From the UHGV virus genome UHGV-0312702: DNA of 64,000 nt; one strand, written 5' to 3'. The stretch is from a virus. How positions within the stretch are numbered: position 1 is the first letter of the stretch; each line of letters starts with the position of its first letter. Below are positions 17,977 through 56,888 of this stretch, piece after piece. The notes under the pieces are model-generated. The model was not told the origin of the DNA. It saw only the letters and a program-made list of their open reading frames with translations, and did no database searches. The position numbers and the translations under genes were made by a program.

Positions 17977-18534
17977 TTACTTTCTTAGTGGATGAATAAA
18001 GAATGCCAACATAACTCTTTCCCTTGAGAATGCTCTTTCTTCTGGGACAACACTTTTAAGTTTCCACCCAACATAAATTCTCCAGTAAAATTGTTTACCA
18101 AAGACTTTAATTGATGGGATAAAAGCAAATAATCCCCAAGCATTGCTGTTCCACATTAGGAGATAACCTGTCTGATTATCTTCAGGGTTAGAACTTACGT
18201 TGATATTACCTTTCCACTTAGTAACATCTTTTACATCTCTTCCTAACACATGGTAAGAGAAGTTATAAGCTTTGTTTCTCCAGAGCCATCCAACTCTCTG
18301 CATATAAACACCGAGCTTACCAATCTTTCTAATCTTAGCCCATCGTTTGATATGACCTGCATCACCATCAATTGGGTTGTCATAAGTCTCCATCCATCTG
18401 AAACCAAAAGGCAGATGACCTTTCTTCTCACTGTAGAATGGGACTACGAAAGGTGCTAAGATAACTGCCAAGATTGCTGCAAATGGCTCTAACAAAGCTA
18501 AGAAAATCCATGAAGCATACTTCAAATATCTCAT
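17977..18534 (-). CDS. hypothetical membrane protein embedded in tRNA island, 185 aa
   Basis: ORF with hydrophobic N-terminus (IFLALLEPFAAILAVILAPFVVPF). Confidence 0.5.
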   Translation of the reverse strand: MRYLKYASWIFLALLEPFAAILAVILAPFVVPFYSEKKGHLPFGFRWMETYDNPIDGDAGHIKRWAKIRKIGKLGVYMQRVGWLWRNKAYNFSYHVLGRDVKDVTKWKGNINVSSNPEDNQTGYLLMWNSNAWGLFAFIPSIKVFGKQFYWRIYVGWKLKSVVPEERAFSRERVMLAFFIHPLRK

Positions 18535-18950: not shown

Positions 18951-18951
18951 A

Positions 18952-19280: not shown

Positions 19281-19286
19281 ACTAAT

Positions 19287-19362: not shown

Positions 19363-19368
19363 AATGTT

Positions 19369-19444: not shown

Positions 19445-19451
19445 ATTAATT

Positions 19452-19874: not shown

Positions 19875-19887
19875 CCTAATAAGACTT

Positions 19888-19970: not shown

Positions 19971-20112
19971 ACTATAATTCGAAACTTACCGTATTATCTC
20001 AACACTGTAAAGCCCCTTCTCAGATTATTTACATGTTCTGGAAAACATGAGATACAGACCACCTCCCTACAGGAAGACCCGCTTAGGTCGTCTAAGTAAT
20101 CTGCTAACTAAT

Positions 20113-20189
20113 TGGCACACCCTACAGGATTCGAACCTGTAACTAACGATTTAGAAGACCGTTGCTCTATCCAATTGAACTAAGGGTGC
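20113..20189 (-). tRNA. tRNA-Arg (anticodon TCT)
   Basis: Anticodon stem ACGGT/ATCGT loop CTTCTAA; acceptor GCACCCT/AGGGTGT. Confidence 0.65.
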
Positions 20190-20526
20190 ATTAATCTTTA
20201 AAGACTCTCTTAGAAAGCCCTTAAAGATGCCCACCTTATTAATCATACCGTGGGCTAGTACGCCAAATTCTTTGATGAGGGATTGGAAGACCTCACTGGT
20301 GTTTAGCCTATCAAGCTACTGCCAGAAAAACATTGTCGTTTGCATTTATTTTAAATTTGCAAAATAGACGCTACGCAACGAAAACTATTCAGAATATGTA
20401 CAACAAATTTCCCCACATTGTGTTACGTCTAACGCTCATGTATTGGTGTTTGAATTATACATATTATGAATTATTTTTAGTTACTATAAAGTAGTCACAT
20501 CTCAATGTCAACAACTTTATTGAAAT

Positions 20527-20601
20527 TGGTTGTAGGTGAGGGTATCGAACCCTCTTCTAACGGTTATCAGCCGTTTGCATTACCATTTATGCTAACCCAC
20601 A
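20527..20601 (-). tRNA. tRNA-Ile (anticodon GAT)
   Basis: Anticodon stem AACGG/CCGTT loop CTGATAA; T-arm GAGGG-TTCGATA-CCCTC. Confidence 0.7.
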
Positions 20602-20602
20602 A

Positions 20603-20680
20603 TTGGAGGTTCAGGTGGGAATCGAACCCACATTCATAGGGCTTATGAAACCCCTGCATTACCTTATCTGCGACTGAACC
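20603..20680 (-). tRNA. tRNA-Met (anticodon CAT), elongator-like
   Basis: Perfect acceptor GGTTCAG/CTGAACC, anticodon stem GGGGT/GCCCT loop TTCATAA. Confidence 0.6.
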
Positions 20681-20684
20681 ATAT

Positions 20685-20760
20685 TGGTAGAAGTGGAGGG
20701 ATTCGAACCCATCGCCTGTCAGATTAAAAGTCTGCCGCATCACCATTCTGCTACACTTCC
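20685..20760 (-). tRNA. tRNA-Lys (anticodon TTT)
   Basis: Acceptor GGAAGTG/CACTTCT, anticodon loop CTTTTAA. Confidence 0.65.
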
Positions 20761-20909
20761 ATTAAATTATCTTTGTAGATAAGCTACCCAGACTTGCTTA
20801 AGGTCTGTAGCGATGTGCCTTGTTGGGTTTAAATCTAGAATTTACCCTTTCACCCTTTGTGGTCGCATACTCACAGGTAAGCTTAATAGCTCACCTACAA
20901 AGATAATTA

Positions 20910-21041
20910 CCAGACCGTTGTTTATCATCTTAAGTGCTACCATTACACCAACTCGACATCTGCCGAGTGAAGGAATCGAACCTTCGCCTTTTCTTTACCG
21001 GAGAAATAGATTGTTTAAGTTTTGCTGTAAACGGTCTTCTG
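20910..21041 (-). repeat. bounded spacer unit D (CCAGACC ... TGCTGTAAACGGTCTTCTG) containing a tRNA-like T-arm
   Basis: Shares both end motifs with units at 21055, 21484, 21637; contains GAAGG-AATCGAA-CCTTC (tRNA T-arm signature at 20969-20985) but no canonical anticodon loop or acceptor pairing. Confidence 0.5.
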
Positions 21042-21054
21042 TAAATTTGTTGAG

Positions 21055-21128
21055 CCAGACCAAGTTTTAAATTTTCAAAATTAAATTGGCTTGAAATTTC
21101 ATACATTCTTGCTGAATTTGGTCTTCTG
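21055..21128 (-). repeat. bounded spacer unit A (CCAGACC ... TGCTGAATTTGGTCTTCTG)
   Basis: Same terminal motifs as units B, C, D; the two ends are mutually complementary (AGACC/GGTCT). Confidence 0.5.
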
Positions 21129-21215
21129 CTCCTTTAAAGAATACTCGCAAGAACTCTTTAAGGGAGGGGCTAAATAGCCCTCTCAAAACATCATTTTGAA
21201 ATACTTATTATAATT

Positions 21216-21293
21216 TGGCGGTTACGAAGGGATTTGAACCCTCATCATCTCCCGTGACAGGGGAGTATTTTAACCAGATTAAACTACATAACC
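21216..21293 (-). tRNA. tRNA-Asp (anticodon GTC)
   Basis: Anticodon stem CTCCC/GGGAG loop CTGTCAC; acceptor GGTTATG/CGTAACC. Confidence 0.65.
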
Positions 21294-21298
21294 TTTAT

Positions 21299-21386
21299 TG
21301 GTGTGCCGTGTAGGAGTCGAACCTACCGAGTCTCAATGACAAGGGATTTACAGTCCCCACCGCTACCATCTACGGGATAACGACAC
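21299..21386 (-). tRNA. tRNA-Tyr (anticodon GTA), class II
   Basis: 88 nt; acceptor GTGTCGT/ACGGCAC, anticodon stem GGGA/TCCC loop CTGTAAA, long variable arm. Confidence 0.65.
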
Positions 21387-21395
21387 ATTTTAATT

Positions 21396-21472
21396 TGGCG
21401 GTTAGTCAGGGATTCGAACCCTGTGCCATTCGCTTAACAGGCGACCGCACATACCTTATGTGCTTCCTAACC
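21396..21472 (-). tRNA. tRNA-Asn (anticodon GTT)
   Basis: Anticodon loop CTGTTAA; T-arm CAGGG-TTCGAAT-CCCTG. Confidence 0.65.
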
Positions 21473-21483
21473 TTAATACATTG

Positions 21484-21542
21484 CCAGACCGTGTTTTTCT
21501 TTTATCCGCAAAAAGTAGTTTGTTGCTGAATACGGTCTTCTG
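21484..21542 (-). repeat. bounded spacer unit B (CCAGACC ... TGCTGAATACGGTCTTCTG)
   Basis: 59-nt unit between tRNA-Asn and the second CAT tRNA with the same end motifs. Confidence 0.5.
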
Positions 21543-21548
21543 CAAAAT

Positions 21549-21625
21549 TGGAGGCGGGTGCAGGAGTCGAACCTGCCGATACCATGCTAATGAGACATGT
21601 GAGACGCCCTTTCTCTATACCCGCA
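21549..21625 (-). tRNA. tRNA with anticodon CAT, second copy (initiator Met or Ile-lysidine type), atypical
   Basis: Anticodon stem CATGT/GCATG loop CTCATTA (pyrimidine at 37); acceptor pairs only with a 1-72 mismatch or a 1-nt register shift; D-stem GAGA/TCTC. Confidence 0.5.
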
Positions 21626-21636
21626 ATTCTTAATGA

Positions 21637-21709
21637 CCAGACCAAATCTCTTCTTTGTCCGATTGAATGTCAGATGAATAAGATTAAATTTGCTGTAATT
21701 GGTCTTCTG
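21637..21709 (-). repeat. bounded spacer unit C (CCAGACC ... TGCTGTAATTGGTCTTCTG)
   Basis: 73-nt unit between the CAT tRNA and tRNA-Glu with the same end motifs. Confidence 0.5.
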
Positions 21710-21716
21710 TCAAAAC

Positions 21717-21791
21717 TGGTGTCGTAGACAGGATTCGAACCTGCGAGCAACTGATTGAAGGTCAGGTGGCTAACCATTTGCCTTCTACGAC
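21717..21791 (-). tRNA. tRNA-Glu (anticodon TTC), C at position 33
   Basis: Perfect acceptor GTCGTAG/CTACGAC, anticodon stem CTGA/TCAG with loop CCTTCAA. Confidence 0.55.
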
Positions 21792-21792
21792 A

Positions 21793-22149
21793 TTAAACCA
21801 TTGTAATTCCACTATGAACCTCTCTGTGGCAATTAGCGCATAGCAAAACACATTTATCAAGTTCTTTTTTAACCTTTTCCCAAGATGCACCCATAAGTTT
21901 TGATGGTGTATTCTCTTTTTCGTTTGGGTTAAGGTGATGCCATTCTAAAGCATTTTTACATTTATTATAGCCACAAATTATGCAACTATCGCCATAAAGC
22001 TTATATGCTTTCTCCCTATTGGCATCCTCTCTAAGTTTTGTCCTTAATGCACAACATTTTAGACAATTTACTCTATTACCGGCGTTACCATTCTTATGAA
22101 TGCTATGTTCAGTTAAACCATGAACTGGACATTCTTTTAAAAATCTCAT
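21793..22149 (-). CDS. HNH homing endonuclease, about 118 aa
   Basis: Cys-rich zinc-finger region plus HNH motif (EWHHLNP ... LLCANCHREVH); ORF-track start at 22227 overlaps tRNA-Pro, so the start is placed at the ATG at 22149. Confidence 0.7.
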   Translation of the reverse strand: MRFLKECPVHGLTEHSIHKNGNAGNRVNCLKCCALRTKLREDANREKAYKLYGDSCIICGYNKCKNALEWHHLNPNEKENTPSKLMGASWEKVKKELDKCVLLCANCHREVHSGITMV

Positions 22150-22166
22150 AGTAACCCCTTTAAATT

Positions 22167-22243
22167 TGGTCTCTGTTGGAGGACTTGAACCTCCGGCCTT
22201 ACCGCCCCAAACGGAACGCTCTACCAAGCTGAGCTAAACAGAG
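22167..22243 (-). tRNA. tRNA-Pro (anticodon TGG)
   Basis: Perfect acceptor CTCTGTT/AACAGAG, D-arm GCTC-AGCTTGGTA-GAGC, anticodon loop TTTGGGG, T-arm GGAGG-TTCAAGT-CCTCC. Confidence 0.75.
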
Positions 22244-25534: not shown

Positions 25535-25906
25535 ATGAAGGCTAAGAGTGCAAAAGACTTTTATTGCTTCCTACAATCCTATATTAATTCCGTGGAGAAA
25601 GGTGAGAGATATAATCTTAACGATGTTATTGCATCACCTTTAACATGGAGACTAAGTAGATGGCCTGAAGAAGATATCACACCAACTAGTGAACACCCTA
25701 CCTACAAACCAGATATTAATCTCCCAGATTCAGAAAAGTTACTATACCCAATGTTCCACATTGTTGGGCTTGGTACGTTTCTTATGGATATTCAGTATGT
25801 AATTGGTAAGGGTTATAAGGTAGAAGGTATTGTTGTTGGTGATGTATCTCCACAACATAAAGGCTATTTTAGATTAAACGCACGTTTAGAGGCTAAAAAG
25901 AAATGA
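25535..25906 (+). CDS. hypothetical protein, 123 aa; paralog of the N-terminal domain of the next gene
   Basis: Shares KAK...RY...WPE.DI...YKPD...LLY...MD.QY...LNA.L pattern with the first about 120 aa of 25903-27036. Confidence 0.55.
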   Translation: MKAKSAKDFYCFLQSYINSVEKGERYNLNDVIASPLTWRLSRWPEEDITPTSEHPTYKPDINLPDSEKLLYPMFHIVGLGTFLMDIQYVIGKGYKVEGIVVGDVSPQHKGYFRLNARLEAKKK

Positions 25907-27036
25907 TTAAAGCAAAGACTTACCCAGACTTCAAAGAGTTTGTAAAGGGCTTCGTTGCAAATGTAAAGGCTGGTAAGAGATATGATTTTAGAACATATCA
26001 AGAAGCTATTTTGCCACTTACCTATAGTTCATATTGGCCTGAAGCTGATATCGCAGAAGTTGAGAAGTTTGACTACAAACCAGACTACAAAGTACCTTTT
26101 AGTGATGATTTGCTTTACAGCATCGGTGCTCAAATGAGAACTTCTGACTTCTTCATGGATTTACAATATGCAATTGTCAATGGTAAAGATGTTGATACAG
26201 TGTATTGTGAATGGTTGGCAAGAGTTAAGCCGTTCTCAATGTTAAATGCTAAGTTGAAGGATGCTATCAAACCACCATCAATCACTCAGCAACCAACCAA
26301 TCAGACAGTTAATGAGGGCGGTACACTTACCTTAAGCATTGTTGCAGCTAATGCCACAGGGTATCAGTGGAAGAAGGGTGATGAGGATATCACTAGTGCT
26401 ACCTCTGCAACTTACACAAAACAGTCAGTTGTTCCTTCTGATGCTGGTTCATACACTTGCGTTGTGTCTGGAGAGGGTGGAACAAGTGTAACTTCAGATG
26501 CAGCAACAGTCACTGTGAATGCCTTACCAGTGATTACCAAGCAACCTTCTAACCAGACCATTAATGAAGGTGGAAACATCAGCTTAGCAGTTACTGCAAC
26601 AGGTGCAACTGGTTATCAATGGAAGAAAGATGGTTCTGACATCCCTTCAGCTACAAATGCCACATATAGCAAATCTGGTGCACTTCCAGCAGATGCTGGT
26701 TCATACACTTGCGTTGTAACAGGTGCGGGAGGTTCTGTAACTTCTAACCCTGCAACAGTTACTGTGAAAGCTCTACCAGTTATCACTCAACAACCAACCA
26801 ATCAGGAAATCACTGAAGGTGAGACCTTAACGCTGAATGTTGTGGCAACAGGTGCAACAGGTTATCAGTGGAAGAAGGGTGGGGAAAACATCCCAGATGC
26901 AACGACTGCAACTTACACCAAAGAGGGTGCAACTGCTGCTGATGCAGGAAGCTACACTTGTGTAGTTACTGGCGCAGGTGGCTCTGTAACATCTAGTGCG
27001 GCAACAGTTACAGTTAACCCAGCAGGGGAGGCATAA
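25903..27036 (+). CDS. protein with paralogous N-terminal domain and three tandem Ig-like repeats, 377 aa
   Basis: Three about 83-aa repeats each with PTNQT(V/I)NEGG ... ATGYQWKK ... AGSYTCVV(S/T)G ... ATVTV; stop overlaps the endolysin start. Confidence 0.6.
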   Translation: MIKAKTYPDFKEFVKGFVANVKAGKRYDFRTYQEAILPLTYSSYWPEADIAEVEKFDYKPDYKVPFSDDLLYSIGAQMRTSDFFMDLQYAIVNGKDVDTVYCEWLARVKPFSMLNAKLKDAIKPPSITQQPTNQTVNEGGTLTLSIVAANATGYQWKKGDEDITSATSATYTKQSVVPSDAGSYTCVVSGEGGTSVTSDAATVTVNALPVITKQPSNQTINEGGNISLAVTATGATGYQWKKDGSDIPSATNATYSKSGALPADAGSYTCVVTGAGGSVTSNPATVTVKALPVITQQPTNQEITEGETLTLNVVATGATGYQWKKGGENIPDATTATYTKEGATAADAGSYTCVVTGAGGSVTSSAATVTVNPAGEA

Positions 27037-27500
27037 TGCAACTCTCAAGAAAAGGTTTAGAAGCTATTAAGTTCTTCGAAGGTCTGAAGTTAGAGGCTTA
27101 CGAAGACTCTGCCGGAATCCCAACAATCGGGTATGGGACAATCCGTATTAACGGAAAACCTGTTAAGATGGGTATGAAAATTACTGCTGAACAAGCTGAA
27201 CAGTATCTTCTCGCGGATGTTGAGAAGTTTGTTGCAGCAGTGAACAAAGCTATCAAGGTTCCAACTACTCAGAACGAGTTCGATGCACTTGTAAGTGAAA
27301 CATACAACATTGGTATCACAGCTATGCAGGATTCCACATTTATCAAGCGCCACAACGCTGGTAATAAGGTAGGTTGTGCAGAAGCTATGCAGTGGTGGAA
27401 CAAGGTTACAGTCAAAGGTCAGAAGGTCACTTCAAACGGACTGAAAAACAGACGTAGAATGGAAGCTAACATTTATCTTGACAGTGTATATCCAAAGTAA
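27036..27500 (+). CDS. endolysin, GH24 (T4-type) lysozyme, 154 aa
   Basis: Catalytic-triad context FEGLKLEAYEDSAGIPTIGYG (Glu, Asp, Thr spacing as in T4 lysozyme). Confidence 0.8.
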   Translation: MQLSRKGLEAIKFFEGLKLEAYEDSAGIPTIGYGTIRINGKPVKMGMKITAEQAEQYLLADVEKFVAAVNKAIKVPTTQNEFDALVSETYNIGITAMQDSTFIKRHNAGNKVGCAEAMQWWNKVTVKGQKVTSNGLKNRRRMEANIYLDSVYPK

Positions 27501-27551: not shown

Positions 27552-27950
27552 ATGAAACTTTGGGCTAGTGACTTTGGGACTTTTAAATACACTCGCAATG
27601 GCTCAATGGTGAGAATCATTGGCAGCCAGATTGTAGTAAATGGAGATGAGGTTTCTACAAAGTTCACTGTAGAGTTAGCTGAGCTATCACCTATTACCCG
27701 TGCTAAAGATGGGCTTTTCAGGTTCGAGATTTACAAAGTAGATGAGTATGGTCGTTTCAACCCTCTTGGAGAAAGTGGATTAGATATTATTTCTGAACAC
27801 CCATTGACAGCAGAGCAATTGTCAGGTTACTATAAAACCATCCTTGAAAGAGAGTTAGCAACCCATGAATGTGAAGCAAGATACCACATCGAACGTTGTG
27901 AAACACTCAAAGAAAAGATAAAACTAGCAGAGAGAGGTTTTTATGAATAA
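27552..27950 (+). CDS. hypothetical protein, 132 aa
   Basis: ORF. Confidence 0.45.
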   Translation: MKLWASDFGTFKYTRNGSMVRIIGSQIVVNGDEVSTKFTVELAELSPITRAKDGLFRFEIYKVDEYGRFNPLGESGLDIISEHPLTAEQLSGYYKTILERELATHECEARYHIERCETLKEKIKLAERGFYE

Positions 27951-28338
27951 TAACAGTCATATCCACGTTAAAGTTGATGTCAGTCGTTACAGCGAAAATG
28001 AAGAATTAGACCTGAAAGATGCTCTTCTCTTTGAGAAGAATGGTAACCTTCATTTGCATTTTGAAGGCACAAATACATATCTCCACAGATGCCGAGATGA
28101 TGCAGATGGTTGTCCTGTTTTTGCTTGGTATAATTTAGAGTTCCCTCTTTATGCAATCCACTACCCAGATGGTGGAGAGGACTGGACTACTCAATCAATC
28201 TTTGATGAGCTTAATGGTGTTCCAGTTGAGCAAGAAGAGCAAGAACCTGTTGAACTAACCTTTACCTTCATCAAAGAAGAGAAGGTAGGTGATTTATCTG
28301 TAACTGAAGCAATTCAAGTCTCACAGGTTATTCGTTAA
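27943..28338 (+). CDS. hypothetical protein, 131 aa
   Basis: ORF. Confidence 0.45.
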   Translation: MNNNSHIHVKVDVSRYSENEELDLKDALLFEKNGNLHLHFEGTNTYLHRCRDDADGCPVFAWYNLEFPLYAIHYPDGGEDWTTQSIFDELNGVPVEQEEQEPVELTFTFIKEEKVGDLSVTEAIQVSQVIR

Positions 28339-29632: not shown

Positions 29633-29851
29633 ATGAAAAAACTAACTACAGTTGAAGATTACTACAAACTGTCTTTATTAGAACAGTATCGTAGAAGCCA
29701 GAACATAAGAAAGTGCTACGGTAAACACGCTGAAGGTGACTTCTACCATTGCTACGATGCAGATTTAAAAGGTGTAACACCTAGAGGAAAAGTCCTACAA
29801 AGACTTGTTGACCTTGAGTGGAACAAACGATTGAGAGGGATTGGAAAATGA
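29633..29851 (+). CDS. hypothetical protein, 72 aa
   Basis: ORF. Confidence 0.35.
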   Translation: MKKLTTVEDYYKLSLLEQYRRSQNIRKCYGKHAEGDFYHCYDADLKGVTPRGKVLQRLVDLEWNKRLRGIGK

Positions 29852-30351
29852 TTTATGAAGAAAGATACAAAATAGACTATCAAGATACTCGTCATCACAC
29901 CTCTTTGAGAGTAACCAAACCAAATGGGGATACCGGTATCATAGCACACTTTGGTGGTGATTATTGGTACGGTACAGGTTGCTTTGAAGGCTACACTCAA
30001 GAATACTTGAAAGCTTTCTACAGAGACTTTACAAATGACTACAACAGAGTTGTTGAAGAGAAGAATAAGTGCATTAAGCATGAATACCATGCCAGAGGTT
30101 GTCTGAATATTGCTATGATACTGGTTTTCTTCTTAGCAACATTACTAGCCGTATCAGCAATCAGCTACATAGCTCAAGACTTGACCATTACACAGATTAC
30201 CGCAAAGGTATATGATGTTTGGTACTTGTATGCTGTTCCTTTAGCTGGTATCATCATCTCACTACTAAGATTCAGAGTTCATAAGAAACGACTTAAGGAC
30301 TCGGAGATTAAACTTGAAGAGGTAAGTAAAGAATGCAACCTACAATTATAG
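29818..30351 (+). CDS. hypothetical membrane protein, 177 aa
   Basis: ORF with two C-terminal hydrophobic segments. Confidence 0.45.
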   Translation: MEQTIERDWKMIYEERYKIDYQDTRHHTSLRVTKPNGDTGIIAHFGGDYWYGTGCFEGYTQEYLKAFYRDFTNDYNRVVEEKNKCIKHEYHARGCLNIAMILVFFLATLLAVSAISYIAQDLTITQITAKVYDVWYLYAVPLAGIIISLLRFRVHKKRLKDSEIKLEEVSKECNLQL

Positions 30352-35216: not shown

Positions 35217-35450
35217 CTAGTCTTTTTCAATGATAATTTCATATTGACCATCGACACTGTCAAAATAGACGCCGTCTTCATCTTCTGTCTTAAAGTAGCA
35301 TTGAATATCATCACTGGCGGGATAGTCTTGTCTTGCTATCTGGCAAACTTGAATAGCATTTTCTTTACTCCCTGTAAACTCCTCAAGCCCTTTAAAATCA
35401 CATGAATGACCATTACAAATAGAAAGGATAAGATAAACGGTTGTAAGCAT
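35217..35450 (-). CDS. hypothetical secreted/lipoprotein-like protein, 77 aa
   Basis: N-terminal hydrophobic segment ending LSICNG, Cys-containing. Confidence 0.4.
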   Translation of the reverse strand: MLTTVYLILSICNGHSCDFKGLEEFTGSKENAIQVCQIARQDYPASDDIQCYFKTEDEDGVYFDSVDGQYEIIIEKD

Positions 35451-40685: not shown

Positions 40686-41471
40686 TTAGTTCTTTGCGTC
40701 TAAGAAGGTAACTTCTGATGATGAGAAAATTTCCTCAACATCCTCATCAGTTCTTGCATAGATATATGTATCTGCATCACTGCCAAATGTTACTGCAATC
40801 CTGTGATTGTTCTTTGACAGGTGGGTAACTAGAGCGTTACTCAGAGACATCTTTTCAACCGGAGGGTTACTTTGATGTATCTTACCTTTTCTTCGTCTGA
40901 AGAGGGTAACTGTATTGTCTGTGAACGTTACTACACCTGCAAAGTATTCTGGTTCACAGTAGTTCTTCCAACCTGAGCGTAACTTGTGGTACATCTCTCC
41001 TTCATAGACATACAGATACACATCTACACTCTTCATCACCTGATTAATGATAACTGTGACGGCTTGAGGGTCAAGCCCACCGATACCTGCACCAATCATA
41101 GGTAACCCGACTTTCTTCAACTGATTGACTTCACAGTATCTGTTAAGCTGTTTCAAAGATGACTCTAAAGCACTGTATCGGGCATCTTTACCAGTCTTAA
41201 GCTGAGTGTAAAGGTTAGCTATACGGCCTTGTTTTAAACGTGCTACAGAGAAATTACCTAGTAGATTTTCACAGGGTTTGTTGCCTATACCACCTGCATA
41301 CAGATAGACTTCTGTATCAGTTTCATATGCTTTTGGGTAAAATTTAGAAATCTTGTCAGCAATACCTGCACCCATTAAATTCATACAGTTGCAGCCATGA
41401 CCAATGATATCAAATTTACCTTTATCAAATGCGTCAAAAATACTACCATTGATGATTTTTACAATACCCAT
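40686..41471 (-). CDS. macro-domain-like protein (putative ADP-ribose binding/processing), 261 aa
   Basis: N-terminal IVKIINGSIFDAF ... DIIGHGCNCMNLMGAGIA resembles the macro-domain Gly-rich ADP-ribose-binding motif; assignment from motif memory only. Confidence 0.45.
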   Translation of the reverse strand: MGIVKIINGSIFDAFDKGKFDIIGHGCNCMNLMGAGIADKISKFYPKAYETDTEVYLYAGGIGNKPCENLLGNFSVARLKQGRIANLYTQLKTGKDARYSALESSLKQLNRYCEVNQLKKVGLPMIGAGIGGLDPQAVTVIINQVMKSVDVYLYVYEGEMYHKLRSGWKNYCEPEYFAGVVTFTDNTVTLFRRRKGKIHQSNPPVEKMSLSNALVTHLSKNNHRIAVTFGSDADTYIYARTDEDVEEIFSSSEVTFLDAKN

Positions 41472-42201: not shown

Positions 42202-42471
42202 TTACTTCCTCGTTTTAAGAACTGCTAAGATTTCTTTAGAGTCTGGTAAGAACCATGTGTAGTGATTCTCTTTGATTTCTGGATGAGTGTCAACCTTTAT
42301 TTTGCAATCTTTACCAACATGCTTAAGCTGTGCTGTGACACCTTGCATAAAGATATGACACATCACATTATCCATAATGGTTGGGATGAAGTCAATTCGC
42401 ATATAAGTTTCTTTTGGTCGTGGTAACAGTAAGTACCCTTCTACGTAAAAAGTATCTTCATTTTCTGTCAT
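42202..42471 (-). CDS. hypothetical protein, 89 aa
   Basis: ORF. Confidence 0.4.
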   Translation of the reverse strand: MTENEDTFYVEGYLLLPRPKETYMRIDFIPTIMDNVMCHIFMQGVTAQLKHVGKDCKIKVDTHPEIKENHYTWFLPDSKEILAVLKTRK

Positions 42472-42737
42472 TGCTGTTTGTTCCCTAATAAAATCATATC
42501 AATAAGGTTGTTAGCTTTGATTGTGCACTGGTAAAAACCATCACGATAAAACTCAAGGGCTGCTGCCACATCACTACCAGTATTACCTTTGACGGTGAAT
42601 TTTGATTCTTCTTGTGTGTACTTATCACTCTCACTTACTTGGGAGTTTTTGAATGTACTGCTCACTTTGTTCGTTGAACACCCTGACATAATTATCAGTA
42701 ACACAAACATTATAAAACTCTGGCTTAGTTTTTTCAT
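42468..42737 (-). CDS. putative o-spanin (outer-membrane lipoprotein), 89 aa
   Basis: Signal peptide with lipobox-like LLIIMSGC; gene overlaps the 3' end of the upstream i-spanin candidate in another frame. Confidence 0.5.
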   Translation of the reverse strand: MKKLSQSFIMFVLLIIMSGCSTNKVSSTFKNSQVSESDKYTQEESKFTVKGNTGSDVAAALEFYRDGFYQCTIKANNLIDMILLGNKQQ

Positions 42738-42978
42738 ATGTTAGTACCTCTTTTGTATGCTTATTCTTAGCAAGCACGTCTTTCAAATCATTTTTGTAAT
42801 TGGTGCTCAGTGTAACTAATCCTTCCTGATAAGCATCTTTAGCAACACTTATCAGCTTCTCATTGTTTAACTCAGCTTCAGCAACTTGGTAGTCTCTGTA
42901 AGAGTATCCTCCCCAGACACCTGCCCCAACTAAGAAAACAATTATGAAAGTAGCTTGACAGAACTCTTTAAATGTCAT
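42631..42978 (-). CDS. putative i-spanin (type II inner-membrane protein), 115 aa
   Basis: N-terminal transmembrane segment (FIIVFLVGAGVWGG) followed by a helical periplasmic domain; overlapped by the lipoprotein gene. Confidence 0.5.
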   Translation of the reverse strand: MTFKEFCQATFIIVFLVGAGVWGGYSYRDYQVAEAELNNEKLISVAKDAYQEGLVTLSTNYKNDLKDVLAKNKHTKEVLTYEKTKPEFYNVCVTDNYVRVFNEQSEQYIQKLPSK

Positions 42979-42999
42979 TTAACAATCTCCTGAAATGAA

Positions 43000-43024
43000 A
43001 AAGGCTCCCGAAGGAGCCTGTATC
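43000..43024 (-). terminator. rho-independent terminator
   Basis: AGGCTCC-CGAA-GGAGCCT hairpin; on - strand followed by TTTTTCATTT. Confidence 0.5.
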
Positions 43025-43030
43025 TTAACC

Positions 43031-43495
43031 TTAACCGAGGACTTTAGCAAGGATATTTGCAGCCATCGAAGAAGCTTTTGCAGCAGCAACTACGCCAGCT
43101 TTGACAGTGCTATCCTTAATGGCAGATACCGTTGCAGCATCAGTAAAGAGGTAAGTGATTGTTTTAGAACCACTTGTAAAGGAAAGCATAAGAGTAGTTT
43201 CCAGATTGAAAGAGCGATACGGAGCACCTTCTTTAATGATACCCTCAGCACCTAACTCTGAAGCCTTACCCATATCATAGATAGTCATCAGGTTTTCTTT
43301 GTGTGCAGTCGTTGAACCAGCACCTTTTACGTGCTTTTTAACATTCAACAATGCACGATATTCACGAATGCTGCCATCAGCTTTTACATTAACAGCACGG
43401 AAAATTTTACCTTCAAAGTTACCCTGAATCATTTTACGAACTACTTCAGATTTGTTTGCCGTATCGTCCAGTGCTACCGTAATAATGTTGTTCAT
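43031..43495 (-). CDS. hypothetical protein, 154 aa
   Basis: ORF. Confidence 0.45.
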   Translation of the reverse strand: MNNIITVALDDTANKSEVVRKMIQGNFEGKIFRAVNVKADGSIREYRALLNVKKHVKGAGSTTAHKENLMTIYDMGKASELGAEGIIKEGAPYRSFNLETTLMLSFTSGSKTITYLFTDAATVSAIKDSTVKAGVVAAAKASSMAANILAKVLG

Positions 43496-43505
43496 AAGTT
43501 TTCTC

Positions 43506-44201
43506 TCAATGTTTAACTAACATGGTTTTGATGTGTGGAAGGATTCTGTTAACCTTCTGCACATTCTTCTCTGTATCTTCTATAAAACATACTATATCAA
43601 AGTAAGGCAGAATGCAAGACTGAATCATCCGTACTTTCAAACTTTCTGCACTTATAGAGTTAGTTCCAAAACCACGCATAAAAAGCATGTAGTCATGCTC
43701 TGTGTTATGCCTTAAAAACATCTCAGTAGGTATTCTCTGAGATTCACCCCTTGCTGTCAAGAGTCCAATGGCAGCATGATTAGCAATTGCATCAATAATA
43801 TTGAAAACATACGTTGGTTTTGCTCTTACAGAGTCAAGAAGGTTAGTATACTGTGAAAATGACCCATCAGTCAATTCCGTTGAGCAATCTTCGTGATTAA
43901 AATTTGTAAGAACACCATCAATATCTGCCAAGATAAGGTTGCCTTTCTCCACAAGGTCTTTATTGACTATGACTAAACTATCACGCCTTACACCTATAGT
44001 TTGTCCAGTCTCTTTGTCCATAACGTTCACAATTGGTTCTGATGTGTGGAACTCTTCAAGTGAACATACAACCTCTCTTGCAGTATCTTCAAAGTCTCTA
44101 CACTGCTCTGGAGTCCATATGCCAGAATCAATACCTAACTCATGAGGATGCAAGTCATAAGCATGGCACAGTACTTCATCAGACTTTCTTAATTTTTTCA
44201 T
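43506..44201 (-). CDS. HAD-superfamily phosphatase-like protein, 231 aa
   Basis: HAD motif I LILADIDGVLTNF (DxDGV/T) in the middle of the protein. Confidence 0.45.
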   Translation of the reverse strand: MKKLRKSDEVLCHAYDLHPHELGIDSGIWTPEQCRDFEDTAREVVCSLEEFHTSEPIVNVMDKETGQTIGVRRDSLVIVNKDLVEKGNLILADIDGVLTNFNHEDCSTELTDGSFSQYTNLLDSVRAKPTYVFNIIDAIANHAAIGLLTARGESQRIPTEMFLRHNTEHDYMLFMRGFGTNSISAESLKVRMIQSCILPYFDIVCFIEDTEKNVQKVNRILPHIKTMLVKH

Positions 44202-44727
44202 GGTTTACCTTAGAAATGTTTGTTGCAAATTCACATTGAGCAATAACTTTCATGTTGTTATAGACATCTTGAGAATATTTCTTAGCTTTAGGAATTTTGT
44301 ATGAATACCCAGCATTATAAGATGCTAAAACTTTTTGTAAAGTCTTCTTTGACTTTGGCTGGCCATGTACCTTCGTCCAAAACTCAAGCTCTTTATGTGT
44401 TTCTTTTGCGGCATAATCAAAGTCTTTTAAAAGTTTCTTTTTAGCCACATTAGGACTAATTTTGTTACGCTTTACAACAGTCTTCAAGTGATTCTGGAAA
44501 ATACCATAGTCATGTGTCTTTTTATTCTCTACCTTCAGACCTAACTCTGACTCTTGTAAGGCTATAGCAGCTAGAGTGATACCCCAACCTTTACCCATAT
44601 TATTCTCACCATACTGGTAAGCTTTTAACATGTTTACTTTTTGGCTAATTGATAGCTCTGGGCAGTCAACTGCATAAGATAAGTGTGCTGTAAACATTAA
44701 GCACAAACCTAGAATCAATTTCTTCAT
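44179..44727 (-). CDS. secreted lytic transglycosylase (SLT family), 182 aa
   Basis: Signal peptide MKKLILGLCLMFTAHLSYA; catalytic-region motif AIALQESELG ... YGIFQ. Confidence 0.6.
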   Translation of the reverse strand: MKKLILGLCLMFTAHLSYAVDCPELSISQKVNMLKAYQYGENNMGKGWGITLAAIALQESELGLKVENKKTHDYGIFQNHLKTVVKRNKISPNVAKKKLLKDFDYAAKETHKELEFWTKVHGQPKSKKTLQKVLASYNAGYSYKIPKAKKYSQDVYNNMKVIAQCEFATNISKVNHEKIKKV

Positions 44728-44785: not shown

Positions 44786-44815
44786 AATAAAAAAGGCCGC
44801 CGAAGCAGCCTTTTA
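44786..44815 (-). terminator. rho-independent terminator downstream of rIIB
   Basis: On - strand GGCTGC-TTCG-GCGGCC hairpin followed by TTTTTTATTTG. Confidence 0.55.
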
Positions 44816-44827: not shown

Positions 44828-45937
44828 TTAGATTTCACGTTTACGTTGAGAGATGAGTTCACCAGCAGTACCGACGATGACATGCAAAGCCTCAGTCTTA
44901 CCGTCCCATGCTTTCAGCACTTTACGTTGGTTATCAACGATTGCTGTAACTTCATAACGAGATGAACGCATCTTCATATCGTTGTAATCAGTTGGAACAG
45001 ATACAACATCTCGTGGATGGACACGAACCTTCAGAATTGTATCACCTGAGAAGCAGCGAACATAATCCCAAGCACCAACATGAAGACCCTGAGAGCAAGT
45101 CACGTTACGGTTATTATCAACCATCCAACGTGGCATTTCTACAATGTTACCCAAATCATTAGGTACTTTGTATGTGCGGGAATCAACCAGCTTGCCTTCA
45201 TGAGTAGAGACTTTCTTCCAACCAATGATGTAGCCTTCTTCATCAATCTCAACATCAAGGTGAGATACGAATCCCCAAAGTTGTTCTACAGAGTCTTTAG
45301 ATGGGTTTTCCATCAGTTTTTCGAAGAACATTACAAGTCGTTCAAAGCCTTTATCACCAGCCTTCATCATGTGAAGAATACGGTCAACCAGAGTAGAACG
45401 CATCTCAACAGCACCGTAGAATAGCTTGTCGCCTTTGATTGTGATAGCCCCCTGAGTGAAGTTTTCGATAGACTTACGAATGTTCATCAGTTCAAAGGCT
45501 TTCTTGAACTCACCTTTCACAACATGAACTACAATCTCTTGATAGTTCGGATGAGTAGACTCAACAATTTCAGATTCTGAACCGTAAGTCATAATTACAG
45601 AGTCACCAGTAATCATGTACTCAATCTTGTCATCTTTCTGCATAGCTTCATGCAGTTTATTTACCGGAGCTTTCTGTACAGAATCTTTAACAACCTTTTC
45701 AACTGGCTTGTCAGCTTTCTTTTTAAAGGTCTTAGCAACTTGTTTCAAAGTCTTTGTAGCTGGTGTAGAAGTTGCCTTCTTCTTCCCTTTTAAGGTTGCT
45801 TCATGACGTTCTACAGCACGACCGACTGAACGGGTTGAAGTATTGAATTTCTGTGCAATAGCTGTTTTGGTCAGCTTACCTTCTTTAACCAGTTTGTAAA
45901 TTTCTGCGTCAATCTGTGCTTTAGTTTTAGTAGTCAT
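44828..45937 (-). CDS. rIIB: rIIB-like protein, 369 aa
   Basis: C-terminal VHPRDVVSVPTDYNDMKMR closely matches the conserved T4 rIIB C-terminus (recalled, not searched); adjacent to rIIA. Confidence 0.75.
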   Translation of the reverse strand: MTTKTKAQIDAEIYKLVKEGKLTKTAIAQKFNTSTRSVGRAVERHEATLKGKKKATSTPATKTLKQVAKTFKKKADKPVEKVVKDSVQKAPVNKLHEAMQKDDKIEYMITGDSVIMTYGSESEIVESTHPNYQEIVVHVVKGEFKKAFELMNIRKSIENFTQGAITIKGDKLFYGAVEMRSTLVDRILHMMKAGDKGFERLVMFFEKLMENPSKDSVEQLWGFVSHLDVEIDEEGYIIGWKKVSTHEGKLVDSRTYKVPNDLGNIVEMPRWMVDNNRNVTCSQGLHVGAWDYVRCFSGDTILKVRVHPRDVVSVPTDYNDMKMRSSRYEVTAIVDNQRKVLKAWDGKTEALHVIVGTAGELISQRKREI

Positions 45938-46016
45938 CTTATTACTCTCTCTTGTCAGTTAATAAATCATTTTGTGAGGCTATTCTAAGGGGCTTCAAAG
46001 CCCCTTGTCAAACATT

Positions 46017-48383
46017 TTAATCGTAAATTGTAGTCCCTTCTGGAACACACTTCACATCAAAGCCTAAGAACTTACTCACTTCGATAGGTGACACTTTATT
46101 CCAATCTAAATGAGAAAGCAAGAAGTTTTCTTGTTTTCTTTTTGAAAGATAGTTTGTCACCTTAATGACCATACGGTCACCAGCTTTCTTAATTTTCTTG
46201 TACAGCTTTGTGTCGTTGTCAAGGCATTCTTTCAAAGTTTGTAATCTACTAACAGTGTAAGTGTATGCAAACGGTGCAGCAACGTATTGGATTTTACCGA
46301 ACATTGCCTCAACAGCATCCTCATTACCTTCTAAGAAGATAGTTTTGTTTGTATCCCGTGAATAACAATAGCCACGAGAAATCTTCCTGTTATTGAACGT
46401 AAAGTTTCTGGCAATAATCCAACTGCTTGTAAGGTCGAGGACACCATTCATATAGATACGTGTCATATACCTGTTATGATTAATCCAATGAACATCAGTT
46501 AAGCTGTCGTTCAAGAGCTTCTCATCTACTTCAATCCAGTCTTCTGGTATCTTTTTCCAATTTGCTTTTCGGAAAACATATACTGTCTTTCCAATGACAT
46601 TGGCAACTGACTTAGCTACATCTTCTGGAGATGAGCAAAAACATTCGCCATCAACTGTGTCGCCTACTGCCTTAATATAAAGCTGAGGCTCTTCAATCGT
46701 ATCTAAGTCTTCTGACACCTCTTTGTATGAAGCTACACCTTCTGCTGGAACAGCTTTCCAGAGTTTTACAACACCTCTTACAGCTTCTTTACGCTGATAA
46801 TGGTGTTCCTTATCAGACATCTTCACAATCTTTAACAAGCTTTTATCAAGTTTGTGTAGATTGATTAAGTCATCTAACTCTTTTTCAGTCGAGAATACAA
46901 ACACAATACCATTGTATCTGTGAAACAGACTTGACTCACTGGCATAGTCTCGACATGCACCACGCAAGATTTGGTTGCGTCCTACAGTCTTCTCAGTACC
47001 GTTCTTATTGCGACGGTCATTAATAACAAACAAAAACTGTTCAATTTGGCTTTTACGCATTGCACCAAAGATATTGAACATACTTGCCTCTTGAGTGTAG
47101 GAAAGTGCTGTTGCACGAATCTTACTCTCTAAAGAGTTGAACTTGACATAAGCAACTGGGTCATAAAGGTAATCTACTTTAGGTATGTTGTTTCCTTTGC
47201 TGTCAACCTTAATATTACCTTTACCATCACGTTCATAAATGACTGAGCCGTCTTCTGCGTAGATAATCCCACGACGAATGTTTAGTAATTCTTCTTCCAG
47301 AGAATCAAGCTTAACACCACCCCACTCTAGCTTTGGACACACAGCATTAAACATCTCTCGTGAGTTCAAACGTAACTCAGCATAAGCCTGTGCAGCATCC
47401 ATGAGTGTAGGTTGGTTATTAACACCCTTAATAACGTCCCTTGTGATTGCTTCAGTTATCTTTTTAGTAGCCTCGATGATAACATTTTTTGTCGTGTCAT
47501 TCATCTGCAATGCTTCACGAGAAGCTGCAATAGCAACTGAACCAATAGGCATGTAGATGTTTACAAGGTCTACGCTCCTACGGAAAAATTCTGGCAAGAC
47601 TTTGAAGAAATCATCGCCAAGTAACGCTTCCATGTTAACTGGATAGGCAATATTACCCATCACCACATTAAACTCTGTCCTGTTATCGCTAGAGCGCCAA
47701 CTTAGCTTATGAATCATGGCATCATAAACACCCTCTTCACGAGCAATGACGTTCATATCTGCTAATACATCGTCGTACACAATATTACTTTCTGGTTTTA
47801 CAGCAAAGTATGAGTATACATTACCAGCTTCTTCAAAGAACTTTGAGATACGATGGTCAGCAACTGCTACACGTACAGCTAAACCATTAGGCTCTTTTGT
47901 TGGGTTAGTTGTTAGCTTGGTTACTTGAGGAATACCATTCTCAAGATAAACAGAGTATTTATTAACAACACCATCAACGTAGCTCGATACTGTGAATGAC
48001 TGAGCAATTGCAAACGGTGACTTTGAACCGATACCCATTGCACCAATGTAGTCATTAGAGTCATTCTTTGTAGAAGCCCCGTAGTTTAGATACAAACTCA
48101 TAACTTTATCATGAGTCAATCCAGTTCCAAAATCACGAACTTCAAAGTAAGGCTCAAAACGAGTAGGTAAATGCACATGGAACGGGATGTTCTCTTTTCC
48201 AGCTTCTTTCTGAGCATCTACTGCGTTACATGACAGTTCACGAATAACTGCCCTTTCTTTAAATGTATATACACCAGAACTCAAAAGGCTGAACATTTCA
48301 GGTGTCATTGTAATCTGTGCTTGAGACGTCTCTAAAGAAGTTGAACTTTTAATCACTTCTGCGTGGTCGTTTACCATGCGCAT
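46017..48383 (-). CDS. rIIA: rIIA-like protein with N-terminal GHKL-type ATPase fold, 788 aa
   Basis: N-box/G-box motifs (RELSCNAVDA ... RDFGTGL ... IGAMGIGSKSPF) in the order seen in T4 rIIA. Confidence 0.8.
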   Translation of the reverse strand: MRMVNDHAEVIKSSTSLETSQAQITMTPEMFSLLSSGVYTFKERAVIRELSCNAVDAQKEAGKENIPFHVHLPTRFEPYFEVRDFGTGLTHDKVMSLYLNYGASTKNDSNDYIGAMGIGSKSPFAIAQSFTVSSYVDGVVNKYSVYLENGIPQVTKLTTNPTKEPNGLAVRVAVADHRISKFFEEAGNVYSYFAVKPESNIVYDDVLADMNVIAREEGVYDAMIHKLSWRSSDNRTEFNVVMGNIAYPVNMEALLGDDFFKVLPEFFRRSVDLVNIYMPIGSVAIAASREALQMNDTTKNVIIEATKKITEAITRDVIKGVNNQPTLMDAAQAYAELRLNSREMFNAVCPKLEWGGVKLDSLEEELLNIRRGIIYAEDGSVIYERDGKGNIKVDSKGNNIPKVDYLYDPVAYVKFNSLESKIRATALSYTQEASMFNIFGAMRKSQIEQFLFVINDRRNKNGTEKTVGRNQILRGACRDYASESSLFHRYNGIVFVFSTEKELDDLINLHKLDKSLLKIVKMSDKEHHYQRKEAVRGVVKLWKAVPAEGVASYKEVSEDLDTIEEPQLYIKAVGDTVDGECFCSSPEDVAKSVANVIGKTVYVFRKANWKKIPEDWIEVDEKLLNDSLTDVHWINHNRYMTRIYMNGVLDLTSSWIIARNFTFNNRKISRGYCYSRDTNKTIFLEGNEDAVEAMFGKIQYVAAPFAYTYTVSRLQTLKECLDNDTKLYKKIKKAGDRMVIKVTNYLSKRKQENFLLSHLDWNKVSPIEVSKFLGFDVKCVPEGTTIYD

Positions 48384-48411: not shown

Positions 48412-48588
48412 TTACTTGTTAAACATTTTACCAGAACCGCCACACATAGGGCAACAACCTGCTCTTGTATACCCTTCTCCGCTACAGTAGTCACACTTTT
48501 TGTGTTCTGCAAAGTACTTACAAAGAAGGCAAACAAATATTGCTACACTACCAAGTGACAGTAAAATTTCTATCCAATATGCTTGCAT
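48412..48588 (-). CDS. unlisted small membrane-anchored zinc-ribbon protein, 58 aa
   Basis: Hand translation MQAYWIEILLSLGSVAIFVCLLCKYFAEHKKCDYCSGEGYTRAGCCPMCGGSGKMFNK; GAGAGGTGA RBS upstream; below the 60-aa cut-off of the ORF track. Confidence 0.4.
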   Translation of the reverse strand: MQAYWIEILLSLGSVAIFVCLLCKYFAEHKKCDYCSGEGYTRAGCCPMCGGSGKMFNK

Positions 48589-53741: not shown

Positions 53742-54137
53742 TCATTCAAACACCACCTGACAAGGAACATGTTTAGTAATAAACTCTTCACAATGCTCTT
53801 TAATGAAGTTTTGTAATGGCACACAGTCTTGTGCACAAGTCATTAGCATAATGTACTCTGGATTCATAATATTTTCAAGACTGTAGAAGACAACATCGTC
53901 AGATAGCTCGTGACCATCTTCTTCAGACCAAGTTCCAGTGACTACAGCTAATTTGTCAAGCAATTCATTAGGCAATGCTACACCGTCTTCTACGGAATCA
54001 CTTAGAACATTGTCGCTGATGTACAATGTGAAGGTCGTATGGAATGTTGAATATCTTACGTGATTCTTTTCGCAAGAGCCACACTCTGAGGCGTAATCTT
54101 TAATCCACTCTAGCTGTTTTTTGTTTAGCTTAATCAT
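53742..54137 (-). CDS. hypothetical protein, 131 aa
   Basis: ORF. Confidence 0.4.
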   Translation of the reverse strand: MIKLNKKQLEWIKDYASECGSCEKNHVRYSTFHTTFTLYISDNVLSDSVEDGVALPNELLDKLAVVTGTWSEEDGHELSDDVVFYSLENIMNPEYIMLMTCAQDCVPLQNFIKEHCEEFITKHVPCQVVFE

Positions 54138-54334
54138 AATTTCACCTTAGTTGGTAATGCACTGAATGCTATAGCTAACCCTAAGAATGGTTTGAAGCAT
54201 GACCATAAATCCATCTGACCATGATATGAGAAACCCCATTGTGGGTCTGAAAAACCCCACACCATAACACTAACACCAAAGAAGAAGATTAGAATATGGA
54301 GTATGTATATCATCGTTTTTGATATCTTAAACAT
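54134..54334 (-). CDS. hypothetical small membrane protein, 66 aa
   Basis: ORF, hydrophobic. Confidence 0.35.
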   Translation of the reverse strand: MFKISKTMIYILHILIFFFGVSVMVWGFSDPQWGFSYHGQMDLWSCFKPFLGLAIAFSALPTKVKL

Positions 54335-54488
54335 TTTAACTTATCTCTCAATTCACAATAAGAAAGTCCTAAAAAGAACCCTAGCAAGACAGAACCTATG
54401 AACAACCCAATAATACTCTCTGCCATATCTAACATCCAATAAAAAAGGTGATGTAAGCCTATCAAGACCCACATCACCTTGTCAAGTT

Positions 54489-56681: not shown

Positions 56682-56888
56682 TTAAATCTTTTTAGAAAAC
56701 TTTGAAACGAGTTTTCTCAGTTTTTCAGTGATGCCTAGCTGTATCTCTAATATTTCAAATATTACCCATAGTAACATGGCTCCAAACAATGAACCTTGTT
56801 CAAAATCAGTAAATAGGTTAACAACAAGCATACCAATCACAATGGCTGGTGCATCAACAACCAAGCCTTCCCAAATGCGTTTAAGCAT
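56682..56888 (-). CDS. hypothetical small membrane protein, 68 aa
   Basis: ORF, hydrophobic. Confidence 0.35.
   Translation of the reverse strand: MLKRIWEGLVVDAPAIVIGMLVVNLFTDFEQGSLFGAMLLWVIFEILEIQLGITEKLRKLVSKFSKKI

Follow-up and report, generated by a model that had tools for sequence, protein, structure and literature searches.

How the lysis functions are arranged in the 64,000-nucleotide stretch of virus genome UHGV-0312702 analyzed here (the whole stretch being "the window") is the question raised by a locus at 42.4 to 44.7 kb, in which a pair of overlapping spanin genes (i-spanin and o-spanin) lies near a gene for a putatively exported SLT-like transglycosylase, with the lysozyme-type endolysin coded far away on the other strand. 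The answer, which we hold with high confidence, is that the window carries lysis genes dispersed in the T4 style, as is ordinary for a Felixounavirus. Neither the split layout nor the overlapped spanin pair is new, both having been published and entered in curated GenBank records. In 2010 the paper describing the Felix O1 genome reported a lack of holin-lysin cassettes, with a holin placed apart from the lysin, as it is in T4 (PMC3185647); announcements of phages Moogle and Meda described Felix O1-like lysis genes as scattered (PMC4319497, PMC6486253); and a 2018 spanin census classed the spanin genes of Felix O1, FO1a, and UAB_Phi87 as overlapped (PMC6139136). In the records of Mushroom, Mijalis, SUSP1, and Bas63, an i-spanin/o-spanin pair is annotated whose location, gene lengths, and extent of overlap match those of the window. 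The added value of our analysis is modest, and consists of a direct demonstration of dual coding, several annotation corrections, recognition of the SLT-like gene as an orthologue of T4 Vs.1, and an argument against the holin label carried by a DUF7338 protein.

The window DNA is ~95% identical to many Felixounavirus genomes (Felix O1-like myophages of Escherichia coli and Salmonella). A 3-kb query spanning the spanin/SLT locus and a 1.2-kb query spanning the lysozyme gene each have matches in over 240 phage genomes, nearly all of them Felixounavirus or other Ounavirinae with Escherichia, Salmonella, Shigella, and Citrobacter hosts, at nucleotide identities of ~95% at the spanin/SLT locus and 80 to 94% at the lysozyme locus. 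The gene content (rIIA, rIIB, a tRNA array, a macro-domain protein, and structural genes) is consistent with this placement. The features that matter most are as follows.

42631..42978, minus strand: i-spanin gene, 115 amino acids; open reading frame (ORF) confirmed, with a PHROG Rz-like spanin match and an N-terminal membrane segment.
42468..42737, minus strand: o-spanin gene, 89 amino acids; ORF confirmed, out of frame with the i-spanin gene, with a lipobox and PHROG matches.
42631..42737, minus strand: dual-coding overlap of 107 nt, specifying the i-spanin C-terminus and the o-spanin signal peptide and first mature residues in different frames.
44179..44727, minus strand: GH23/SLT-type lytic transglycosylase-like protein, 182 amino acids; predicted Sec signal at residues 1-19, T4 Vs.1 orthologue.
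27036..27500, plus strand: soluble GH24 (T4-lysozyme-type) endolysin, 154 amino acids; Pfam Phage_lysozyme and phrog_7 matches.

All four ORFs (115, 89, 182, and 154 codons) are exactly where an earlier inspection of the letters (the sequence-only reading) had placed them, and the separation of ~15 kb that it gave between endolysin and spanins, on opposite strands, agrees with the 14,968 nt measured from the endolysin end to the o-spanin stop. It had also put the transglycosylase gene 1.4 kb upstream of the spanins; the gene is indeed upstream, and the distance needs correction to 1.2 kb, counted from the SLT-like stop to the i-spanin start.

The 115-residue protein matches phrog_1152, a family labelled "Rz-like spanin," over its full length (residues 1-115; E 1.1e-41). 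It has one hydrophobic segment, N-terminal at about residues 5-25, and none elsewhere, as estimated from hydropathy rather than with a dedicated topology predictor, and is thus predicted to be a type II inner-membrane protein with a periplasmic domain. Its ATG at 42978 is preceded, at 8 nt, by a GGAG Shine-Dalgarno sequence. Relatives are found by tblastn in 403 phage records, at 25 to 40% identity outside Felixounavirus, and span Felixounavirus, Mooglevirus, Suspvirus, a Hafnia phage of the Ounavirinae, Kolesnikvirus (Erwinia and Salmonella), and Kuravirus podophages. Alignment of six lineages shows that the invariant residues include Cys92, within a conserved C-terminal motif, F-x-N-x-C...F-N.

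The 89-residue protein begins MKKLSQSFIMFVLLIIMSG followed by CST, with an n-region, an h-region, and the lipobox I-M-S-G-C20, with serine at position +2. The sequence-only reading had taken this ORF for a lipoprotein, and hydropathy and the lipobox together do reveal a proper signal of this kind; the product is predicted to be an outer-membrane lipoprotein precursor with Cys20 as its lipidation site. A GAGG Shine-Dalgarno sequence lies 9 nt before the ATG at 42737. A lipoprotein-signal filter (a PROSITE-like lipobox) passes two ORFs in the six frames of the window, compared with 0.93 per shuffled window; the first of these falls precisely at the 3' end of the sole Rz-like gene, and the other is at 35244-35405. 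The mature protein would have 70 residues, none of them proline, and ends in a conserved motif, E-F-Y-R-D-x-F-Y-x-C-x-x-x-x-N-x-L-I. Residues invariant across the six lineages include the C-S-T motif, Gly54, Glu62, Cys71, Asn76, and Leu78. The protein matches phrog_4180, whose function is unlabelled, at E 2e-50, and more weakly phrog_456, an Rz-like spanin family (E 9e-5); NCBIfam returns only weak matches, to lipoprotein signal regions.

In every lineage fetched, the 3' end of the i-spanin gene contains the start of an out-of-frame lipobox ORF. Mushroom, Mijalis (Mooglevirus), SUSP1 (Suspvirus), the Hafnia phage, Kolesnikvirus, and Kuravirus all keep this ORF, with overlaps of 107 to 137 nt among the relatives examined and a lipoprotein ORF of 86 to 98 codons in all lineages examined, so that the pair is retained as overlapping genes in six lineages. 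The substitution pattern demonstrates dual coding directly. Eight Felix-like genomes were aligned without gaps, and the variable sites were sorted by codon position. In the segment coding only for the i-spanin, 31.5% of sites are variable, and 47 of the 76 variable sites are at third positions of its frame; in the 163 nt past the i-spanin stop, coding only for the o-spanin, 38% are variable, and third positions of the o-spanin frame account for 42 of 62. The 107-nt overlap is only 16.8% variable, about half the value of its single-coding flanks, and shows third-position bias in neither frame, which is the signature expected of two overlapping coding genes. The overlap codes in both frames and is not a chance ORF.

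The pair has the organization by which two-component spanins are recognized as a functional class (Summer 2007; Kongari 2018), with a single N-terminal transmembrane segment in the i-spanin, a lipobox without aspartate at +2 in the o-spanin, and same-strand overlap of the genes. Each protein also has one invariant periplasmic cysteine (Cys92 in the i-spanin and Cys71 in the o-spanin), in keeping with the requirement of spanins for one or more homotypic disulfides (PMC6139136). We therefore uphold the sequence-only reading of these genes as i-spanin and o-spanin, for which PHROG Rz-like homology, the lipobox, persistence of the overlapped pair down to ~25% protein identity, and the dual-coding signature all speak, and which agrees with the independent curation of the same genes as spanins in Mushroom, Mijalis, Bas63, and others.

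By analogy with lambda Rz/Rz1, the i-spanin would be anchored in the inner membrane by its N-terminal segment, and the o-spanin, once exported, would receive its lipid on Cys20 and, on account of serine rather than aspartate at +2, would be directed to the outer membrane. The conserved C-terminal regions of the two proteins may then bind each other across the periplasm, and the single invariant cysteines (C92 and C71) would permit homodimer disulfides. The peptidoglycan mesh would keep the complex inactive, and the outer membrane would be fused or disrupted after the wall had been degraded, presumably by the soluble GH24 endolysin reaching it through a holin.

The endolysin itself is a clear T4-type lysozyme, as the sequence-only reading had it. 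It matches Pfam Phage_lysozyme (PF00959) with 140.3 bits against a cut-off of 22.3 (E 5e-41) and the phrog_7 endolysins at E 1e-57, and its Glu15, Asp24, and Thr30 correspond to E11, D20, and T26 of T4 lysozyme, judged by alignment offset and direct reading. Hydropathy shows no hydrophobic segment and neither a signal nor a SAR segment; such an endolysin, having no export signal, requires a canonical hole-forming holin. The endolysin ATG and the stop codon of the gene upstream (25903-27036, plus strand) have one base in common, suggesting that the endolysin is translationally coupled to a late, structural-type Ig-domain gene. We note that the product of this upstream gene has 377 residues and three Ig-like domains (Hoc-like, or "tail protein"). 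Some records place a "D-alanyl-D-alanine carboxypeptidase" beside the lysin, a label we reject, as the ORFs at 27552-27950 and 27943-28338 find no support in Pfam.

The SLT-like protein coded upstream of the spanins is more equivocal in its role than in its family. It begins MKKLILGLCLMFTAHLSYA followed by VD, a Sec-type signal by hydropathy, and has the SLT motifs Glu59-Ser60, G75-x-x-Q78, Y137-N138-x-G140, and Y151. In a 15-sequence alignment of database homologues, Glu59 is invariant, Ser60 is nearly so, the G-x-x-Q, Y-N-x-G, and Tyr motifs are conserved, and an N-terminal signal sequence is present in every full-length member; some of the aligned proteins have Pfam SLT matches, and precomputed PF01464 matches are on record for more distant homologues (P0015, P0016, and P0018-P0020). 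A single-sequence search of the PDB returned nothing, and a profile built from the alignment matched EtgA (E 7e-4) and goose-type lysozymes. An AlphaFold2 model (pLDDT 84.8) is placed by Foldseek with g-type lysozyme, a GH23 chitinase, EtgA, MltF, and Slt in the PDB (probability 0.8 to 1.0, TM ~0.5), and with phage SLT-domain proteins of ~170 to 200 residues in a viral library (TM ~0.7, E down to 2e-9). The catalytic motifs, the predicted fold, and the profile matches to EtgA and goose-type lysozyme thus sustain the SLT-family assignment of the sequence-only reading, despite a Pfam score below the cut-off. The protein is 32% identical to T4 Vs.1 over 174 residues (E 2e-16) and is the only Vs.1 match both in the window and in the Mushroom genome; a weak similarity of vs.1 to SLT was noted in 2006 (PMC1524935).

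The same gene is labelled "RegB-like endoribonuclease" in Mushroom (L004 35872-36420), which we reject, as there is no RegB Pfam match and the protein has a GH23 fold and motifs. The label derives from an old name, "protein in vs-regB intergenic region," carried by the Felix O1 ORF3 record, and it appears to be an annotation artefact. A distant SLT/Vs.1 homologue also occurs in metagenomic contig ERZ21849166 contig_2694 (L019 6001-6878), where it is followed, with a 4-nt stop overlap, by a gene for a 100-residue lipoprotein beginning MKTKLLLISLILLVSGC and is preceded, just upstream, by a Gad2-domain gene.

Three terminator-like hairpins lie on the minus strand of the region and bear on how the SLT-like gene and the spanins are expressed.

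44791..44814, minus strand: terminator-like hairpin between the rIIB stop and the SLT-like start; the Mijalis record has a terminator at this point.
43002..43019, minus strand: terminator-like hairpin AGGCTCCTTCGGGAGCCT followed by TTTTC, between a 154-codon ORF and the i-spanin start; likewise marked as a terminator in the Mijalis record.
40656-40615, minus strand: terminator-like hairpin after the macro-domain gene.

The spanin ribosome-binding site (GGAG, 42990-42987) comes directly after the second of these. A near-consensus sigma-70 promoter lies upstream of rIIB at 46011-45982. Between many of the small minus-strand genes at 33.6 to 40.2 kb, an intergenic cassette of ~60 to 110 nt is commonly repeated, containing a GC-rich hairpin, a TTGACA-type promoter, and a ribosome-binding site; the promoter upstream of rIIB is part of a partial copy (45998-46019). 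No such promoter or cassette copy is present directly upstream of the SLT-like gene or the spanins, and both are probably expressed by read-through.

An alternative is that the SLT/Vs.1-like enzyme belongs to the lysis machinery, weakening the wall or setting the timing as an additional muralytic enzyme that needs no holin, so that the 42.4- to 44.7-kb locus would be a true partial lysis module, as the sequence-only reading implied. The signal peptide, the invariant catalytic Glu-Ser, and the other SLT motifs fit such a role, as does the location of the gene, which precedes the spanins by 1.2 kb in Felixounavirus, Mooglevirus, Suspvirus, and the Hafnia phage. In Felix O1, reverse transcription-PCR showed that transcripts of ORF3 (the SLT-like gene), ORF6 (the i-spanin gene), and ORF35 (the lysin gene) all peak at 25 min (PMC3185647, Table 3), and Nolan et al. 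proposed "some role in cell lysis" for T4 vs.1 (PMC1524935). However, the T4 vs.1 gene is ~73 kb from the spanin genes and 4 kb from e, with unrelated genes between, and a divergent Ounavirinae-like metagenomic contig keeps the order rIIA-rIIB-SLT-PNK...Macro with no lipobox ORF or spanin pair after it, which shows that the linkage of the SLT-like gene is to rIIB and the polynucleotide kinase (PNK)-like gene and not to the spanins. A terminator hairpin separates the SLT-like operon from the spanins, an active wall hydrolase exported constitutively from mid-infection would be expected to lyse the cell prematurely unless it were weak or regulated, and we found no vs.1 lysis phenotype in the literature. 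We regard a part in the lysis machinery as unlikely, although it is the best placed of the alternatives.

The SLT-like protein is most likely an accessory enzyme of the periplasm and not a central component of lysis. It would be exported by Sec, would probably be an active periplasmic lytic transglycosylase, and would be co-transcribed with the HAD/PNK-like gene downstream of rIIB; in Felix O1, ORF3 is absent from the detected virion proteins (PMC3185647). Orthology to T4 Vs.1 does not in itself demonstrate a lysis function, and counting the protein among the lysis functions, as the sequence-only reading did, is an inference. A broader proposal is that a Vs.1-type exported transglycosylase, common to T4-like and Felix O1-like phages, contributes independently of the holin to lysis, to its timing, or to resistance to lysis from without, the true holin being a non-canonical membrane protein. 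We consider this doubtful, and somewhat more so than a lysis role for the SLT-like enzyme taken by itself. If it were true, the holin candidates would be a 167-residue protein with two membrane segments, or a pair of membrane proteins coded after the tail-fibre genes outside the window, both described below.

Several points weigh against an assignment of these genes to a T4-style lysis set. A Pfam scan gives no Rz/Rz1 family match for either spanin, only weak unrelated ones, and BLASTP against T4 PseT.3/PseT.2 gives E 27 for the i-spanins and E 0.04 for the o-spanins, the latter in the signal peptide only. With no similarity to lambda Rz/Rz1 or to PseT.3/PseT.2, the spanin assignment is one of architecture and PHROG family label. 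The mature o-spanin, unlike lambda Rz1, has no proline. The only indication that the i-spanin periplasmic domain is helical comes from a single-sequence AlphaFold2 model, all-helical with a pLDDT of only 45.8, which was set aside as too low in confidence for use. The SLT-like protein scores 18.8 bits against Pfam SLT (PF01464), under the gathering cut-off of 21.3 (E 1.2e-3). In the literature searched there is no experimental test of spanin function, and no lambda Rz/Rz1 complementation, for this spanin family. Finally, with no holin identified, the lysis pathway is incomplete.

Phage lipoproteins with roles other than lysis exist, and the pair could in principle be another envelope system, for example a lipoprotein that excludes superinfecting phages or masks a receptor, in the manner of T5 Llp or T4 Sp/Imm, accompanied by an unrelated membrane protein. 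Its location in the early/middle region beside rIIA and rIIB, away from the late genes, would suit such a function, as would an o-spanin whose mature form is longer than lambda Rz1 and has no proline. However, the larger protein matches a PHROG Rz-like spanin family over its full length, the architecture of a type II membrane protein with an out-of-frame lipoprotein is kept across lineages at 25 to 30% identity, the periplasmic cysteines are invariant, and no other spanin candidate was found, although the second lipobox ORF (35244-35405) was not followed up and the genome beyond the window was covered only through the annotations of relatives. T4 also has functional spanin genes in its early region, adjoining pseT (PMC6139136). 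A non-spanin envelope system is accordingly very improbable. There is next to no chance that the 89-residue ORF is a chance alternative-frame ORF without a protein, the 115-residue gene alone being real, as several automated GenBank annotations that omit it or truncate its start (dropping the signal peptide) might suggest: the 42 of 62 variable sites at its own third positions effectively refute this, the ORF, its lipobox, and its C-terminal motif persist in Kolesnikvirus and Kuravirus at 26 to 28% identity, a Shine-Dalgarno sequence precedes its ATG, and such omissions fit a known gene-caller bias against overlapping genes (PMC6139136).

In several GenBank records of related phages, the o-spanin start is set too late (at L001 3767-3988, L002 1767-1988, L009 2766-2939, and L010 2859-2987), yielding products of 73, 57, or 42 residues that have lost the signal, and others list a "hypothetical protein." Many deposited Felix-like genomes thus mis-start or omit the o-spanin, and the correct gene is the 89-codon lipoprotein ORF.

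The sequence-only reading reported no holin, and for the window this is still true. T4 T, RI, and RI.1 give no tblastn match below E 0.7 in the window or the full Mushroom genome, and no holin family match was obtained with Pfam and PHROGs for any of the candidates or with NCBIfam for six of them. In Felix O1, Whichard et al. listed gp79, 116, 118, 119, and 131 as possible holins (PMC3185647). ORFs counted as candidates in the window include those at 56682-56888, 54134-54334, 54310-54477, and 48412-48588, and outside it the homologues of Mushroom genes 56 and 57. Two further proteins coded in the window are likewise holin candidates only.

29848..30351, plus strand: membrane protein of 167 amino acids, with two membrane segments (residues 86-109 and 124-144) and a highly charged C-terminus.
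17977..18534, minus strand: DUF7338 protein of 185 amino acids, with one N-terminal membrane segment, coded inside the tRNA array.

The 167-residue protein is coded on the endolysin strand, 2.3 kb farther downstream, and its homologues are found by tblastn only in Felixounavirus, Mooglevirus, and Suspvirus. That in Bas63 (gp116) is reported to be conditionally essential, and a role in lysis has been speculated (bioRxiv 10.1101/2024.10.10.617714). The DUF7338 protein is labelled "holin" in Mushroom, and is a class III holin according to the CPT annotators. Homologues ~60% identical to it are present in T4-like phages (RB43, KP27, and Matisse), and phages of Aeromonas and Yersinia have more remote ones. 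RB43, KP27, and their like presumably have a t holin gene of their own, and the presence of DUF7338 proteins in phages with a holin of their own weakens the Mushroom annotation. This is of some consequence, as Felix O1-like phages are used therapeutically and the DUF7338 label is the sole published "holin" annotation.

Two small membrane proteins are also coded after the tail-fibre genes, ~7 kb outside the left end of the window (Mushroom L003 36487-37060; L017 1330-1895). One belongs to phrog_402 and is annotated as just 33 residues in Mushroom, the ORF really having 64 codons; the other belongs to phrog_4038, has 123 residues with one membrane segment and a coiled coil, and is called a "putative holin" in a Hafnia phage record. 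These two are the most widely conserved positional holin candidates, in a location like that of T4 t after gene 38. A 58-residue protein (48412-48588, minus strand), coded directly upstream of rIIA, has an N-terminal membrane segment and a C-terminal CxxC...CxxC zinc-ribbon-like motif and is annotated "DnaJ-like" in Mushroom. By genome position, it would correspond to gp131, one of the old Felix O1 holin candidates.

The surrounding genes include a T4-like early accessory set comprising rIIA, rIIB, Vs.1, the HAD/PNK-like gene, and the macro-domain (Tk.4) gene. Landmarks of the window are as follows.

46017-48383: rIIA.
44828-45937: rIIB.
40686-41471, minus strand: macro-domain protein gene, product 33% identical to T4 Tk.4.
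16617-22243: array of 25 tRNA genes.

The "polynucleotide kinase" gene (43506-44201, minus strand) shows a HAD phosphatase motif (ADIDGVL) only, with no P-loop visible, and its product aligns with T4 Pnkp solely in the surroundings of that motif.

Compared with known systems, the locus resembles lambda Rz/Rz1 in having a type II inner-membrane protein and an out-of-frame outer-membrane lipoprotein, as predicted, coded by the same DNA, with periplasmic cysteines available for homodimer disulfides and a presumed part in the final step of Gram-negative lysis. It differs in that the genes are overlapped and not embedded, there is no holin/endolysin cassette and no detectable sequence homology, and the window proteins have one periplasmic cysteine each. 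Lambda Rz1 has ~40 residues and is proline-rich; the o-spanin of the window is, in its mature form, a longer, proline-free protein with a conserved, probably helical C-terminal motif.

The likeness to T4 extends from the scattered lysis genes and the soluble GH24 endolysin to homologues of rIIA, rIIB, Vs.1, and Tk.4 (macro domain), and to spanin genes in the early region no more than 0.5 kb from a PNK/phosphatase gene. Like T4 PseT.2, the o-spanin is larger and not proline-rich (PMC6139136). In contrast, there is no sequence similarity to PseT.3/PseT.2, whose genes are separated and not overlapped, the window spanins lie downstream and not upstream of the PNK-like gene, and neither the window nor the whole Mushroom genome has a t or rI homologue. 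Homology to the T4 spanins was considered and rejected for want of any similarity, the shared PNK-like neighbourhood being positional only. The pair would work like the lambda and T4 spanins while standing outside their sequence families.

The SLT-like protein resembles T4 Vs.1 and the small specialized GH23 transglycosylases of the EtgA, IagB, IpgF, and VirB1 type in its size (~180 residues), signal peptide, SLT family-1 motifs, and predicted GH23 fold. It differs from the EtgA/IagB/IpgF/VirB1 type in being phage encoded and unlinked to a secretion or conjugation apparatus, in its sub-threshold Pfam SLT score, and in that its activity is putative.

The closest parallels are Felix O1 ORF6/ORF7 (NP_944790/NP_944791) and their orthologues in Mushroom, Mijalis, SUSP1, and Bas63, which have identical gene lengths (348 and 270 nt) and the same 107-nt overlap, and lie at the same position downstream of rIIB, the SLT-like gene, the PNK-like gene, and the 154-codon ORF. 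Their spanins are 76 to 100% identical to those of the window, a few amino acid substitutions being the sole difference.

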